From: Armatimonadota bacterium
Lineage (GTDB): Bacteria > Armatimonadota > Fimbriimonadia > Fimbriimonadales > GBS-DC
NCBI GenBank assembly: GCA_037445735.1
Contig: JBBIJY010000005.1
Span: 59,381-123,380 of the forward strand
Reading direction: 5' to 3'
DNA length: 64,000 nucleotides
The position numbers and the translations under genes were made by a program. The notes below the pieces were generated by a model. The model was given only the letters and a program-made list of their open reading frames with translations. It did no database searches and was not told where the DNA came from. Position 1 is the first letter of the stretch; the number at the start of each line of letters is the position of its first letter. Below are positions 1,167 through 17,046 of the stretch, one piece after another.

Positions 1167-1783
1167 TCGGGCAGTGTCGCCCGCTCCTGCTCGCTCAGGT
1201 GGAGCTGCACTTCGGCGTCCGCCAGCTGAATCACCGTGTGTTCGTTGCTGTTGCGCAGCTCCTCTATAATCGCGTCGATCTTTTCGGGGGTGAGCTGTCG
1301 GCAGTAGATGTCGCCCACCTGCATCACGGGCGCGTCACCACAGTTGTTGAGGCATTCCACTTCGGTCAGCGTGAACAGCCCATCGGGTGTGGTCTCGCCC
1401 AGCTGGATGCCGAGCTTCTGCTGCAGATATTCCAGGATTCGGTACGCGCCGCACAGCATGCAGCTCAGGTTGGTGCAGACCTCCAGCATATATTTGCCGA
1501 CGGGCTGCTTGTTATACATCGTGTAGAAGGTGGCGACGCCTTCCACTTCGGCGCAGGAGCGTCCGAGCCGATAGGCGACTTCGGCAATCGCTTCAGGTGG
1601 CAGGTAGCCGCCGTACTCGCGCTGGGCAATCCAGAGGGCGGGCAACATCGCCGACTTGCGGTCAGGGTAGTGCTGGAGGATCAGCTCCAGCTCACGGACG
1701 GCGCGTTCGGAGAATCGCAGGGTCAGCTCCTGCGGGCGTGGTGGGCGCAGTTGCGCCGAGAGCCGAATCGGTTGCTGTTCCAT
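1154..1783 (-). CDS. nuoE: NADH-quinone oxidoreductase subunit E (2Fe-2S)
   Basis: YPDRKSAMLPALWIAQ, VATFYTMY, VCTNLSCMLCGA and ECLNNCGDAP. Start set at ATG 1783, 7 nt after a TACAAT -10 box. Confidence 0.93.
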
Positions 1784-1810
1784 CGCTGGAATTGTACCTG
1801 ATAGGGAGAT

Positions 1811-2138
1811 AAAAAAGAGCCCGAGCGAATCGGTCTGCCCTTTTCGGTTCCGCCTGGCTTGCTGCCGTCCTGCGGACTCGGTGCCCCGACCGACATTGCT
1901 GCCGATCCTGAGGCGCCGCCACTCCACGAGTGAGCAGCAGGCTTCGGGCGGTTCCTATCCGCCGTTCACGCGCGCCCAACACTGGGGCGCGGGCTGCGCG
2001 TGTTGCTCCCCGCACGGTCTCTCCATCGGCTGCCCGTCGCCGGCGCAACGGGCGTCGATGGCTCCGAGCAAGGCTCCCGACGGCAGGGACACCTGCCTTC
2101 GCTCGGGCGACGGTCATCGAGTTTCCCCGATAACCATC
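1811..2138 (-). ncRNA. Unassigned large structured ncRNA candidate (~330 nt)
   Basis: Own TTGACA-18-TATAAT promoter; 5' 13-bp hairpin with GAAA loop; 11-bp long-range helix GCCCGAGCGAA/UUCGCUCGGGC followed by UCUUUUUU; many internal hairpins whose G-U pairs and GNRA loops work on the minus strand; no credible ORF. Confidence 0.7.
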
Positions 2139-2141
2139 CCT

Positions 2142-2171
2142 ATTATACCACACCGATGACGGCTTTGTCAA
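2142..2171 (-). promoter_or_regulatory. Consensus sigma70 promoter with extended -10, driving the ncRNA candidate
   Basis: Minus strand reads TTGACA aagccgtcatcggtgTGg TATAAT (18-nt spacer). Confidence 0.85.
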
Positions 2172-2180
2172 GGGGTCGAG

Positions 2181-2241
2181 GGGGAATCGGGGGGTTTTCG
2201 AGGGCGAATCGGGGGAAATTTCGGGCAAAATCGGGAGTTTC
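2181..2241. repeat. Three imperfect direct repeats with 22-bp period (core AATCGGG...TTTC)
   Basis: AATCGGG starts at 2185, 2207 and 2229. Confidence 0.6.
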
Positions 2242-2288
2242 GGCGCTCGAAGCCGTCGCGCAGGTGCGCGTGGGGTACACTCTGGGGG

Positions 2289-2810
2289 ATGGCGGAGGCG
2301 AGTCAACCCGTGCGGCGGGCAATCTACCCTGGCAGCTTCGACCCGCCCACGATGGGGCATCTGGATATTATCACGCGGGCAGCGCGACTGTTCGACGAAC
2401 TCATCGTCGCGGTCGCCATCAACAGCGACAAAAAGCCCCTCTTCAGCCTGCAGGAGCGGGTCGCCATGCTGGAGGAGTGCTGCAGGCAGCTGCCGAATGT
2501 GCGCGTGATGCCGCTGGAAGGTCTGCTGGCACGCTTCGCGCAGCAGGCAGGCGCATGCGCCATCGTGCGCGGGCTGCGAGCCGTATCCGACTTCGAATAC
2601 GAGTTCCAGATGGCGACCATGAACCGCCAGCTGGCGCCCGAAGTGGACACCTGCTTCCTCATGACGCATCAACAGTACGCCTTTCTGTCGTCGTCCATCG
2701 TGAAGGAGGTGGCGCGGCTCGGCGGCGATGTGAGCCAGCTGGTGCCCCCCAATGTGCAGACCCGCCTGCAACAAAAATTTGCTCCACCATCGGCAGGAGA
2801 CGGTCACTGA
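2289..2810 (+). CDS. coaD: Phosphopantetheine adenylyltransferase
   Basis: AIYPGSFDPPTMGHLDII, IVRGLRAVSDFEYEFQMA and SSSIVKEVA. Confidence 0.97.
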   Translation: MAEASQPVRRAIYPGSFDPPTMGHLDIITRAARLFDELIVAVAINSDKKPLFSLQERVAMLEECCRQLPNVRVMPLEGLLARFAQQAGACAIVRGLRAVSDFEYEFQMATMNRQLAPEVDTCFLMTHQQYAFLSSSIVKEVARLGGDVSQLVPPNVQTRLQQKFAPPSAGDGH

Positions 2811-2859
2811 ACCGCGAATCAACCATTTAACCCTGGCGCAAGCGACGGAGGATCGGGCG

Positions 2860-3411
2860 ATGATTAACACGGATGTCATAACTATCAGGCGATGGCTGCG
2901 TGAGCTGGATCAGATGCTGGAGAACAGTCGCAGTTTCGGACCCATCGTGTTCGGCTTGAACAAAGGCGAATGCCTGAACCTGGTCCAGCAGATTCTGGCG
3001 AATCTGCCGTCGGATCTGGACAAGGCGGAGCGGGTGCTGCGCGAGTCGGATCGGCTGGTGGGCGGTGCGCAGGCGGAGGCGCGCATGACCCTCGAACAGG
3101 CGCGGGAGGAAGCCCAGCGGATTATCGAGCAGGCGCGACAGCAGGCGGAGGCGATTCTGGAACGCGCCCGCGCCGAGCAGGAGCGCATGCTGGCGCAGAC
3201 TGAAGTCTACCAGCTGGCAGAGGCGCAGGCGCGCGAAATCGTGGAGACCGCCCGCCAGAAGGCACAGCAGATTCGACAGGGCGCCGATGAGTACGCCTAT
3301 GAGGTGCTGACCCAGCTGGAGGGCGCACTCGCCAAAGTGATGAGCACCGTGCAGAACGGTAAGGCGCTCCTGGAAGACCATCTCAAGCAGCGCGTGGGCG
3401 CACGCCGCTGA
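2860..3411 (+). CDS. Coiled-coil protein of the type commonly found after coaD (DivIVA/SepIVA- or F0-b-like)
   Basis: A/E/Q/R-rich heptads and GADEYAYEVL motif; directly downstream of coaD; start at ATG 2860 inferred. Confidence 0.7.
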   Translation: MINTDVITIRRWLRELDQMLENSRSFGPIVFGLNKGECLNLVQQILANLPSDLDKAERVLRESDRLVGGAQAEARMTLEQAREEAQRIIEQARQQAEAILERARAEQERMLAQTEVYQLAEAQAREIVETARQKAQQIRQGADEYAYEVLTQLEGALAKVMSTVQNGKALLEDHLKQRVGARR

Positions 3412-16969: not shown

Positions 16970-17046
16970 CGGGGCGTAGCTCAGCATGGTAGAGCGCTCC
17001 TTTCGGGTGGGAGAGGTCGGCAGTTCGAATCTGCCCGCCCCGACCA
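16970..17046 (+). tRNA. tRNA-Pro(CGG)
   Basis: Acceptor stem CGGGGCG/CGCCCCG plus ACCA; anticodon arm CTCCT-TT CGG GT-GGGAG; T-loop TTCGAAT; TATAAT at 16955-16960. Confidence 0.97.

Follow-up and report, generated by a model that had tools for sequence, protein, structure and literature searches.

Large bacterial RNAs with complex folds are rarely discovered, and those examined to date (RNase P RNA, tmRNA, 6S, OLE, ROOL and GOLLD) each showed unusual biochemistry. The OLE RNA (RF01071), the raiA motif RNA, ROOL and GOLLD are large, intricately folded, lineage-restricted RNAs that stand alone, carry invariant nucleotides in their junctions and loops, and have functions that cannot be read from the neighbouring genes. 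The RNA described here resembles these four in all of these respects and differs from them in having no model match, no conserved adjacent partner gene and no match in phages or plasmids. It lies at 2136-1811 on the minus strand of the window (the whole stretch of 64,000 nt that was analysed). We consider it likely, with a probability of about 0.72, that this region is a stand-alone gene for a highly structured non-coding RNA (ncRNA) of about 325 nt that belongs to an uncatalogued family, acts in trans, is stable and is probably protein-bound. The locus combines a promoter, a 3' end, covariation, frame-breaking indels and changing flanks, as a stand-alone structured ncRNA would, and transcription itself is a prediction. 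The features that delimit the gene are as follows.

2172..2184, minus strand: C-rich element abutting the -35 hexamer upstream (CCCCCTCGACCCC here; CCCCTTAACCCC in most homologues)
2166..2171, minus strand: -35 hexamer TTGACA (12/12 consensus matches together with the -10 hexamer)
2142..2150, minus strand: extended -10 element TGgTATAAT (TG at 2150-2149, TATAAT at 2147-2142)
1811..2136, minus strand: predicted RNA of about 320-326 nt, its ends placed from the promoter and the U-tract
1811..1818, minus strand: U-tract UCUUUUUU, directly after helix H2; likely transcription stop and 3' tail (predicted termination)

The two hexamers are separated by a spacer of 18 nt, and no other such promoter site was found within 1500-2600 (1.1 kb), where shuffled sequences average 0.1. 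The promoter (TTGACA, 18-nt spacer, TAnnnT) is conserved in 40 of 42 distinct upstream regions, and the C-rich element recurs in most of them. Elsewhere in the source genome only the promoter recurs, the ncRNA region being single copy. The 5' end of the RNA was placed 6-8 nt past the -10 box and the 3' end inside the U-tract. A terminator scan of the locus returned 0 local hairpin terminators, and U-rich tails come after H2 in all aligned homologues. Read from the sequence, the 3' end is predicted to consist of the long-range closing helix H2 and the U-tract. The earlier note on this DNA had proposed a minus-strand TTGACA-18-TGnTATAAT promoter, which proved correct in all coordinates, and a 3' U-tract belonging to the RNA itself, which does lie at 1818-1811 immediately after the closing helix.

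A BLAST search for homologues was positive for 17 of 24 genomes from the same family and for 0 of 16 from elsewhere in the order. Covariance model R1, which takes in flanking bases and matches the source locus at window positions 1808-2140 with 252.5 bits, gave matches in 25 of 28 family genomes, one full copy each, and in none of 122 genomes from the order's other four families. Among 150 further genomes from the phylum, none was matched by model R2. As far as detectable, the ncRNA is restricted to one uncultured family of Fimbriimonadales (Armatimonadota), with one copy per genome. A loose pattern matched at least 120 stretches of the genome_contigs collection; among the 80 matches listed 9 were genuine, all of them titled Fimbriimonadales, Bacterium HR15 or Armatimonadota. 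Another match in an Armatimonadota-type record (L088) was rejected as a chance match within an ABC-ATPase-like coding region. In the case of metagenomes, 39 of 49 pattern matches were genuine copies and 10 were due to chance (best score 5.2 bits). The phage and plasmid collections gave no match to the ncRNA.

Four sequencing runs contain the stretch, all of DNA (one study, labelled subsurface metagenome), and this DNA may itself derive from one of them. A literature search on structured or noncoding RNA in Armatimonadetes, Armatimonadota or Fimbriimonadales found nothing relevant. Words beginning with Armatimonad, and the names Fimbriimonas and Chthonomonas, are absent from the main text of PMC11109978, PMC8632094, PMC5737381 and bioRxiv 10.64898/2026.10.21.760802; the supplementary motif lists of these papers, which may bear on novelty, lie outside this scope.

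The 4227 models of Rfam 15, applied to the whole window at the gathering threshold, gave a tRNA at 16970-17043 as the sole match. In E-value mode over 1700-2300 the best match was c-di-GMP-II-GAG, with 18.7 bits against a threshold of 40. Six diverse homologue loci had no Rfam match on the ncRNA either, and ARAGORN found no tmRNA or tRNA on it in 19 loci. The family is new in that none of the 4227 Rfam families matches it; whether its mode of action is new is a separate question. The earlier note had inferred that the RNA is structured, stands alone and possibly represents an undescribed class. This is borne out by the Rfam result and by the homologues, which exist and carry strong compensatory changes (see below).

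It is extremely improbable that the models overlooked a divergent housekeeping RNA (RNase P, 6S, SRP, tmRNA or Y RNA). The size and the closing helix recall RNase P RNA, GGAAAGUCC is present in some sequences of genus g3, and the genome has a Ro60/TROVE protein and no recognised Y RNA. However, the genome carries RNase P RNA (RF00010) on a different contig (C3:109574-109914, 263.1 bits), SRP RNA (RF00169) at C21:39547-39645 (70.3 bits), tmRNA (RF00023) at C26:3978-4328 (177.8 bits) and a weak 6S-like candidate (RF00013) at C25:13084-13265 (31.3 bits), and nhmmer detected no similarity of the ncRNA to any of them. At the ncRNA locus, RF00010 gave no match even at E up to 10 and RF00013 gave none; 6S-like candidates occur in relatives too. 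A lack of RNase P, SRP, tmRNA or 6S identity had already been noted, in agreement with the location of the first three genes elsewhere and with the missing 6S model match. We also considered GGAAAGUCC as an RNase P-like word and rejected it, as it is not conserved across genera. A Y RNA partnering Ro60 was likewise rejected: within the family, 6 of 24 genomes have TROVE versus 25 of 28 with the ncRNA, and TROVE is also present in family f3 (4 of 6 genomes), where the ncRNA is missing. In the source genome the TROVE gene is on contig C4 and the ncRNA on C5, and no Rfam match was found near the TROVE gene.

The minus strand of 2140-1811 folds with a minimum free energy (MFE) of -189.4 kcal/mol, compared with -151.1 +/- 5.9 for shuffled sequences (z = -6.5), and 0 of 100 shuffles folded as stably as the native sequence. 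The consensus fold is multi-branched and contains 13 helices. It was evaluated on two alignments, A1 (17 sequences, aligned with MAFFT and built without the model) and A4 (55 distinct sequences aligned to the covariance model). In A1, 96.1% of cells pair and two-sided changes occur in 32 of 74 pairs (6-11 with slid partners), and in A4, where alignment to the model favours its structure as it does not in A1, 93.1% of cells pair and two-sided (compensatory) changes occur in 51 of 83 pairs (19-22 slid); since all sequences come from one family, the independent compensatory events are fewer than such cell counts imply. The observed covariation was attained by 0 of 500 shuffles for A1 and 0 of 500 for A4. 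GNRA loops persist despite sequence change, 64 columns are invariant and concentrated in junctions and loops, and the fold has conserved wobble pairs.

Against this background there is next to no probability that the region holds no RNA gene and is instead a small coding region or a conserved DNA element (regulatory or a mobile-element remnant). Long stop-free frames do run on both strands, e.g. a 395-aa frame at 1692-2879, and the sense strand is open for at least 100 codons in 28 of 55 sequences. Such frames are, however, expected given 62-68% G+C, and of 468 indel runs relative to the source sequence, 401 are not multiples of three and disrupt the frame. Compensatory changes across the helices, loops that stay GNRA, the single copy and the absence of phage or plasmid matches also speak against this reading.

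The 5' end of the RNA forms a hairpin outside the closing stem:

2113..2134, minus strand: H1, 5' hairpin with a GAAA (GNRA) loop; 9 conserved bp, 13 bp in the source genome
2100..2108, minus strand: H2 closing helix, 5' strand GCCCGAGCG (A4 pairing)
1819..1827, minus strand: H2 closing helix, 3' strand CGCUCGGGC (A4 pairing and MFE fold)

H1 pairs in 99.4% of cells, with compensatory changes in 4/9 pairs (A4), and its loop is GAAA, GAGA, GCAA or GGAA in 54 of 55 sequences. H2 pairs in 100% of cells, with compensatory changes in 5/9 pairs (A4). Both had been drawn longer, as a 13-bp GAAA-capped hairpin (2138-2109) and as an 11-bp helix (2108-2098 with 1829-1819). These longer forms are in the MFE fold, and nine base pairs of each are kept comparatively.

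Inside H2, the first predicted domain is a three-way junction:

2084..2096, minus strand: possible local hairpin GCAGG-UGU-CCCUG, an alternative to lower H3
2078..2087, minus strand: H3, 5' strand (CCUG + CCGUCG), closing the three-way junction (A4 pairing)
2008..2073, minus strand: H4-H5-H6 arm, with a conserved H4 base CCUUGC/GCGGGG and a length-variable distal hairpin, mostly GNRA-capped
1967..2002, minus strand: H7 (CACG/CGUG) and H8 (GCCC/GGGC), bearing the near-invariant loop GYGCCCCAG (1990-1978)
1954..1964, minus strand: H3, 3' strand (CGGCGG, A, UAGG) (A4 pairing)
1951..1957, minus strand: conserved UAGGAAC (47 of 55 distinct sequences)

H3 pairs in 97.3% of cells, with compensatory changes in 5/10 pairs (A4); the pair at columns 63/195, for example, is CG in 31 sequences, UA in 22 and GC in 2. 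A local hairpin with the 3' strand of 2084-2096 can be folded in 52 of 55 distinct sequences, in varying registers, and shows no two-sided covariation because this strand is invariant. A pairing between columns 325-328 and the 5' strand of H3 was also tried. It initially appeared more than 90% paired and covarying; it was rejected because it is lost in every sequence in which one of the two sides varies (L198/L230, L053, L214, L057, L196, L189, L048, L042 and L039/L227). In the arm, H4 pairs in 95.1% of cells (compensatory 4/6 pairs), H5 is weak (74.8%) and H6 pairs in 90.7%, with compensatory changes in all 8 of 8 pairs (A4). H7 pairs in 99.1% of cells (compensatory 4/4) and H8 in 93.6% (compensatory 2/4; A4). 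The loop motif GCCCCAG (columns 165-171) is invariant in 54 sequences and is retained in the divergent L059 too.

The second predicted domain is enclosed by H10 and is listed here with H9 and the conserved CCGAAAAGG:

1947..1951, minus strand: H9, 5' strand CCGCC, pairing with GGCGG at 1854-1850
1933..1938, minus strand: H10, 5' strand GCUGCU, pairing with 1866-1861 and enclosing H11, H12 and a short hairpin
1920..1932, minus strand: H11, hairpin CACU(C)/(G)AGUG (A4 pairing)
1883..1914, minus strand: H12, 13-bp hairpin GCCUC-AG-GAUCGGCA-GCAA-UGUCGGUC-GGGGC (A4 pairing)
1867..1877, minus strand: short hairpin GUCC-GCA-GGAC; in other genera GCU-UCGA-AGC or GCU-GUAC-AGC at the same place
1861..1866, minus strand: H10, 3' strand GGCAGC (A4 pairing)
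1850..1854, minus strand: H9, 3' strand GGCGG (A4 pairing and variants)
1839..1847, minus strand: conserved CCGAAAAGG (41 of 55 sequences; CUGAAAAGG in 8 more)

H9 has compensatory variants in genera g1, g4 and g5 (CCGCC/GGCGG, CCGCU/AGCGG and CUGCG/CGCAG), and it is absent in genus g3, so that just 63.9% of cells pair overall. H10 pairs in 81.2% of cells, with compensatory changes in 5/6 pairs (A4); by eye, its variants include CGAGCG/CGCUCG, CAGAGCG/CGCUCUG, AUCGCC/GGCGAU and GACCGU/ACGGUC. The helix that RNAalifold drew as its number 11 on A1 (AGC.UC/GA.GCU) was superseded by H10, which has 6-8 bp in all genera, together with the short local hairpin. As the registers of the latter differ, it was left out of the pair counts. 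H11 pairs in 99.1% of cells (compensatory 3/4 pairs) and H12 in 97.2% (compensatory 6/13; A4). In H12 a bulged G and the U-G and G-U wobble pairs are invariant. Its GNRA loop reads GCAA, GAAA or GCGA in 54 of the 55 sequences, and all 55 have NG at the bulge. Only 2 bp (H13) are predicted in the CCGAAAAGG region.

Several of the internal pairings first drawn by the earlier note were kept by this comparison: CCAUCG..GCCCGUUGC/GCGACGGGC..CGAUGG is the variable arm, CACGCGC/GCGCGUG retains 4 conserved bp, CACUC/GAGUG corresponds to H11, and the GAUCGGCA-GCAA-UGUCGGUC hairpin to H12. The proposed GGCAGG/CCUGCC pairing can form locally in the 52 of 55 distinct sequences mentioned above and competes with the lower 4 bp of H3. 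Others had to be redrawn. GGCGG and CCGCC, taken for a local hairpin, pair with CCGUC (H3) and with a downstream GGCGG (H9), respectively, and GCUGCU, taken for an extension with GGCGGC, pairs with the distal GGCAGC (H10). GUCGG/CCGAU and CUCGG/CCGAG found no comparative support as drawn. A pseudoknot or switch had been suggested from competing pairings, which are accounted for by the conserved H7 and H8.

The placement of conserved motifs in this fold also bears on whether the RNA is a base-pairing or protein-titrating sRNA (Hfq-dependent or CsrB-like), acting via single-stranded loops or GGA motifs, which we judge very unlikely. The genome encodes Hfq and CsrA, the RNA terminates in a stem and U-tail, and GGA is found within the highly conserved UAGGAAC, GGAUCGG and GGAG. 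However, these motifs are mostly inside helices H3, H4 and H12 and outside hairpin loops, and by estimate their number is about that expected from base composition. Moreover, Hfq and CsrA are widespread, whereas the ncRNA is found in one family, and CsrB/RsmZ RNAs are not known for such an elaborate long-range, covarying architecture. A CsrA sponge of the CsrB/RsmZ type was rejected on motif placement, as the predicted hairpin loops are GNRA or GYGCCCCAG.

Among 26 loci, the ncRNA is flanked by coaD in 4 and by nuoE in 2. The downstream gene varies by genus (NuoE, an MBL/Ada-Zn protein, a T2SSE ATPase or a baeRF-like protein), and no neighbour gene is conserved across the loci compared. Thus, with flanking genes that vary between genera, the ncRNA is not a nuoE leader, in line with the earlier view that it probably was none; nuoE is downstream at those 2 loci only. 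A more general cis-acting leader, i.e. a very large riboswitch-like element or attenuator in which H2 and the U-tract form a conditional terminator of the downstream co-directional gene, is quite unlikely. In every genus-level arrangement seen, a gene on the same strand begins within a few tens of bases past the U-tract (in this window the nuoE ATG is 28 nt past it), so that read-through or a cis role may occur, and the junctions are strongly conserved in sequence, which is also a feature of aptamers. Against such a leader, the downstream genes are functionally unrelated across genera and do not form the coherent set expected of one, a TACAAT box lies 7 nt ahead of the nuoE ATG, and no antiterminator pairing withstood sequence comparison. 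We also know of no riboswitch with about 290 nt inside its terminator stem.

Under the preferred reading of a stand-alone, trans-acting RNA, the gene would be transcribed constitutively and strongly, and transcription would end at H2 and the U-tract. H1 and H2 would shield both ends and make the RNA stable. The body would be composed of two domains, the three-way junction (H3, H4-H6, H7-H8) and the H10-enclosed bundle (H11, H12 and the short hairpin), and the GNRA tetraloops of H1 and H12 probably dock and compact the fold. The H8 loop GYGCCCCAG, UAGGAAC, CCGAAAAGG, the junction strands and the H12 wobbles and bulged G may together offer a binding surface for a trans partner, which is most likely at least one protein, and the ncRNA would then be part of an RNP like those of OLE, 6S or Y RNA. 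The neighbouring gene is apparently not regulated by the ncRNA.

The same conserved junctions and loops could instead be the active site or pocket of a large protein-independent ribozyme or ligand-sensing RNA, which we regard as unlikely. Such an RNA would fit the multi-branched fold with GNRA loops on H1, H12 and mostly H6, as well as the 64 invariant columns and the conserved wobbles, and the text of PMC5737381 describes catalytic or otherwise unusual functions as frequent among large bacterial RNAs. On the other hand, the ncRNA resembles no ribozyme or riboswitch model in Rfam, and neither a substrate nor a cleavage site nor a set of associated genes hints at a chemistry.

There is a small but appreciable chance that the ncRNA is the core of a novel RNP machine, or a new large ribozyme, that arose in one uncultured Armatimonadota family. 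If this is true, the H8 loop, the wobble and bulge platform of H12 and the three-way junction would form a centre without counterpart in known RNA classes. In any case, the gene marks an RNA-based function that is retained family-wide in single copy behind a near-perfect promoter, which suggests an important role in these organisms. Its narrow distribution limits the immediate reach of the finding. Since 55 distinct natural sequences are available, the secondary structure is well supported and the promoter and 3' end are defined, the RNA is amenable to synthesis, probing, cryo-EM and pull-down.

When compared with individual known systems, the ncRNA shares with 6S RNA (RF00013) and the actinobacterial Ms1 RNA a single-copy gene, a strong promoter, paired ends and a likely high constitutive level, and binding to a core machine, as in these RNAs, is conceivable. 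Unlike 6S RNA, it is multi-branched and not a rod with a central bubble, and the genome has a separate 6S-like candidate. It is like RNase P RNA (RF00010) in its length, a closing helix that joins the ends, several arms with GNRA caps and a single copy in each genome, and unlike it in the extra 5' hairpin outside the closing helix and the absence of an RF00010 match. In the case of bacterial Y RNAs, which associate with Rsr/Ro60, the likeness consists of a closing stem made from the 5' and 3' regions, a U-tail, a branched body and the presence of TROVE in the genome; however, the ncRNA is not adjacent to the TROVE gene, TROVE is patchy in the family, and known bacterial Y RNAs have only about a third of the ncRNA's size. 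Compared with OLE RNA, the ncRNA is roughly half as large and its host belongs to the Armatimonadota and not to the Firmicutes, the Actinobacteria or phages. By analogy with OLE, a role within an RNP is plausible for this RNA too.

When the minus strand of the window from 2171 to 1811 was re-read, the sequence description in the earlier note was borne out. A promoter scan of 1500-2600 returned a single sigma-70-type site (0.1 +/- 0.4 in shuffled sequence), which matched the claimed consensus at 12 of 12 positions and has the following parts:

2171-2166, minus strand: -35 box, TTGACA
between the two boxes, minus strand: spacer of 18 nt, ending in TG
2147-2142, minus strand: -10 box, TATAAT

The predicted fold contained both the 13-bp GAAA-capped hairpin (H1) and the 11-bp closing helix (H2, 2108-2098 with 1829-1819) that had been described, the latter followed by UCUUUUUU. 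When 2140-1811 was folded as RNA, the energy was -189.4 kcal/mol, against -151.1 +/- 5.9 kcal/mol for 100 dinucleotide shuffles (z = -6.5), and none of the 100 was as stable.

Homologues were found within one family of the Fimbriimonadales (f1). Using BLAST, the region was detected in 18 of 41 genomes including G000, the genome holding the window; without G000, these were 17 of 24 f1 genomes and none of 16 from other families of the order. All 17 loci (L001-L017) gave full-length nhmmer matches and were used to build a covariance model, R1, which matched 25 of 28 f1 genomes, with one full copy in each. R1 found nothing in 122 genomes of four other families (f2 0/3, f3 0/98, f4 0/1, f5 0/20), nor did a second model, R2, in 150 other genomes across the phylum; these large scans used stricter Infernal filters that weak relatives could escape, E-values from both models are rough (short calibration), and R2 matches to the sequences on which it was trained hold by construction. 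Three f1 genomes, G008 (94% complete), G010 (87%) and G021 (85%), were negative, also in a more thorough search with E up to 1. Genome G004 carries a divergent copy of 279 nt (C9:9465-9743, L059; 31 bits with R1, which was built without it). This copy has retained H1, H2, H12 and the GCCCCAG loop and is without the consensus promoter and the greater part of the 3' domain; it may represent either a minimal version occurring in nature or a copy in decay. G080, a 69%-complete bin, has an additional partial match at the end of a contig (C93:1523-1639, L060; covering model positions 181-295), which might reflect duplication during assembly or a mixture of strains.

A motif scan of 185,579 species genomes gave nine real loci among the 80 matches listed, from uncultured Fimbriimonadales (7), Bacterium HR15 and Armatimonadota bacterium. 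Among metagenome contigs, a tighter scan picked out 49 loci; 39 are real, scoring 191 bits or more, and the other 10 are due to chance. In total, 61 full or near-full copies were collected (55 distinct sequences; 21 clusters at 88% identity). No match was found in phage and plasmid collections.

On comparison of these homologues, as the earlier note had proposed, compensatory changes far exceeded the slid controls in two alignments. For A1, a structure-blind MAFFT alignment of 17 sequences, RNAalifold gave 74 pairs; 96.1% of cells were paired (88.0% in shuffles) and 32 pairs changed on both sides, against 6-11 when partners were slid by 1-3 columns. The structure was then refined by cross-genus comparison: H8 became GCCU/AGGC with a loop of 12-13 nt, and the long-range H10 supplanted RNAalifold helix 11. 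H10 occurs, for example, as CGAGCG/CGCUCG, CAGAGCG/CGCUCUG, AUCGCC/GGCGAU, GACCGU/ACGGUC and UGCUGCU/GGCAGCA. H9 occurs as CCGCC/GGCGG, CCGCU/AGCGG and CUGCG/CGCAG, and is formed in genera g1, g4 and g5, not in g3. In A4, the 55 distinct sequences aligned to the model and thus leaning towards its structure as A1 does not, 93.1% of cells were paired over 83 pairs, of which 51 showed two-sided changes (19-22 in slid controls). None of 500 shuffles reached the observed values in either alignment; because every sequence derives from a single family, counts of compensatory cells are higher than the number of independent events. In A4, pairing was weak in H5 (74.8% of cells) and H9 (63.9%), and the stretch from H10 to H2 was also weak. 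In 52 of 55 sequences an invariant CCCUG can take part in a local hairpin, which rivals the lower four pairs of H3.

Long open frames across the locus were considered as protein-coding and rejected: they are expected at the local G+C, and 401 of 468 indel runs, counted relative to the window's sequence, were not multiples of three. A stop-free frame of 395 aa (1692-2879, minus strand; antisense to coaD and running through the RNA) was likewise regarded as a high-G+C by-product. Given the frame-breaking indels and the compensatory helix changes, it is hardly conceivable that the locus encodes no RNA at all.

The promoter is conserved with the RNA. TTGACA, an 18-nt spacer and TAnnnT were present in 40 of 42 distinct full-length upstream regions, most of them with TG before the -10 box. 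The first H1 pair lies 6-8 nt past the end of the -10 box, so the transcript probably starts at H1 or just before it. A search of indexed sequencing runs turned up no RNA run from these organisms. At the other end, a scan for short local hairpin terminators found none; the RNA ends in the long-range closing helix followed by U's. Most of the 42 regions also carry a C-rich CCCCTTAACCCC element ahead of the -35 box, in most cases abutting it (CCCCCTCGACCCC in the window, 2172-2184), which resembles a half-repeat of CCCTTGAC. Elsewhere within G000 the promoter recurs without the RNA (31-34 bp including the spacer, AAGCCGTCATCG.TG..; 88-94% identity to window 2141-2171) at three places:

C20:41231-41261 (L019): promoter recurrence
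C27:10692-10725 (L021): promoter recurrence
C20:49293-49322 (L022): promoter recurrence

All three precede ORFs with signal-peptide-like starts that appear secreted or membrane-like (read by eye from the DNA), and Rfam models gave no match there. The RNA thus seems to use the clade's strong housekeeping-type promoter, which may be a strong-promoter cassette common to these genes or the site of a regulator.

The neighbouring genes differ. The RNA had been proposed not to be the nuoE leader, and indeed nuoE lies downstream in only 2 of 26 loci (G000 and G002), while coaD is upstream in only four, all in genus g1. Elsewhere the downstream gene encodes an MBL-fold protein with an Ada zinc domain (G003, G006), a type II/IV secretion ATPase (g3) or a baeRF-family protein (g5). 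In the window, TACAAT (1796-1791, minus strand) stands 7 nt before the nuoE ATG (1783-1781) and no Shine-Dalgarno sequence is evident by eye (1781-1796, minus strand), which suggests a separate, possibly leaderless nuoE start. A cis attenuator is quite unlikely because flanking genes change between genera; the downstream gene is on the same strand in all cases, which leaves some room for read-through. As judged from these comparisons, the RNA is a gene of its own, positioned independently of its neighbours. Of 19 loci examined, four have a tRNA-Glu(CUC) gene in the same orientation as the RNA, some 100 nt ahead of its promoter (L034:587-663, L035:1324-1400, L038:1625-1701, L048:1318-1394).

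Across 54 sequences, 64 columns are invariant. The loop of H1, the 5' hairpin, is GNRA in 54 of 55 sequences (GAAA 41, GAGA 9, GCAA 3, GGAA 1), and CCCGAG/CUCGGG in H2 is invariant. H3 closes a three-way junction with a length-variable H4-H6 arm and an H7-H8 arm; in the GYGCCCCAG loop of the latter the last seven bases do not vary, and the arm is followed by UAGGAAC in 47 of 55. H10 encloses H11, the 13-bp hairpin H12 (GNRA loop in 54 of 55; invariant bulged G, U-G and G-U pairs) and a short hairpin. CCGAAAAGG (41 of 55) lies 5' of the H2 3' strand and U-tail.

The suggestion that the RNA may belong to no known class held against Rfam 15. At gathering thresholds the sole match in the whole window was a tRNA (16970-17043), and with permissive filters the best three scores in 1700-2300 were 18.7, 15.6 and 14 bits (thresholds 40, 60 and 43.7); a permissive search of six diverse homologue loci found nothing on the RNA. 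G000 (2.78 Mb, 59 contigs) has the classes that the earlier note had set aside, or a candidate, elsewhere:

other G000 contig: RNase P RNA, 263.1 bits
other G000 contig: SRP RNA, 70.3 bits
other G000 contig: tmRNA, 177.8 bits
C25:13084-13265 (L024): 6S-like candidate, 31.3 bits (Rfam threshold 46.4)

Compared with these four, the RNA shared at best an 11-nt word (blastn-short, E = 0.11), and nhmmer found nothing. A known RNA that was missed is therefore extremely improbable. Weak 6S-like matches (33-38 bits) also occur in other f1 genomes, so 6S RNA seems to be divergent in the clade.

A Ro60-bound Y RNA was considered because of a TROVE (Ro60) protein gene in G000 (C4:47412-48296, L237; 627-aa open frame). 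It was rejected, as TROVE does not follow the RNA: it is found in 11 of 41 genomes of the order, in only 6 of 24 from f1, yet in 4 of 6 from the RNA-less f3. No Rfam Y RNA was matched within about 1.5 kb of the TROVE match, near which an unrecognised one may lie.

The analysis establishes that the fold is conserved and compact and covaries, that the consensus promoter is nearly invariant, that the ends pair and lead into a U-tail, and that the RNA is single-copy and independent of its neighbours. The RNA would be made constitutively and terminated at H2 and the U-tract; H1 and H2 would shield it from 5'- and 3'-end-dependent decay, GNRA-loop docking would compact it, and the invariant unpaired or wobble-paired elements would together make up the surface to which a trans partner binds. 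We favour, as a conjecture, a protein partner (RNP), because the invariant elements lie scattered over the RNA, its helices are free to covary and there is no coherent set of genes to suggest a metabolite. A ribozyme or ligand sensor is unlikely; a base-pairing or titrating sRNA is very unlikely.

Nothing relevant was found in literature on Armatimonadetes, Armatimonadota or Fimbriimonadales RNA, and these taxa are absent from the main text of the RNA-discovery papers covered. Since membership in every testable known family among the nearest candidates also fails, we rate this predicted RNA as a new family. Its nearest known counterparts, by a likeness drawn from general descriptions, are the orphan 'ornate' RNAs (OLE, raiA, ROOL and GOLLD), 6S/Ms1, RNase P RNA and Y RNAs.
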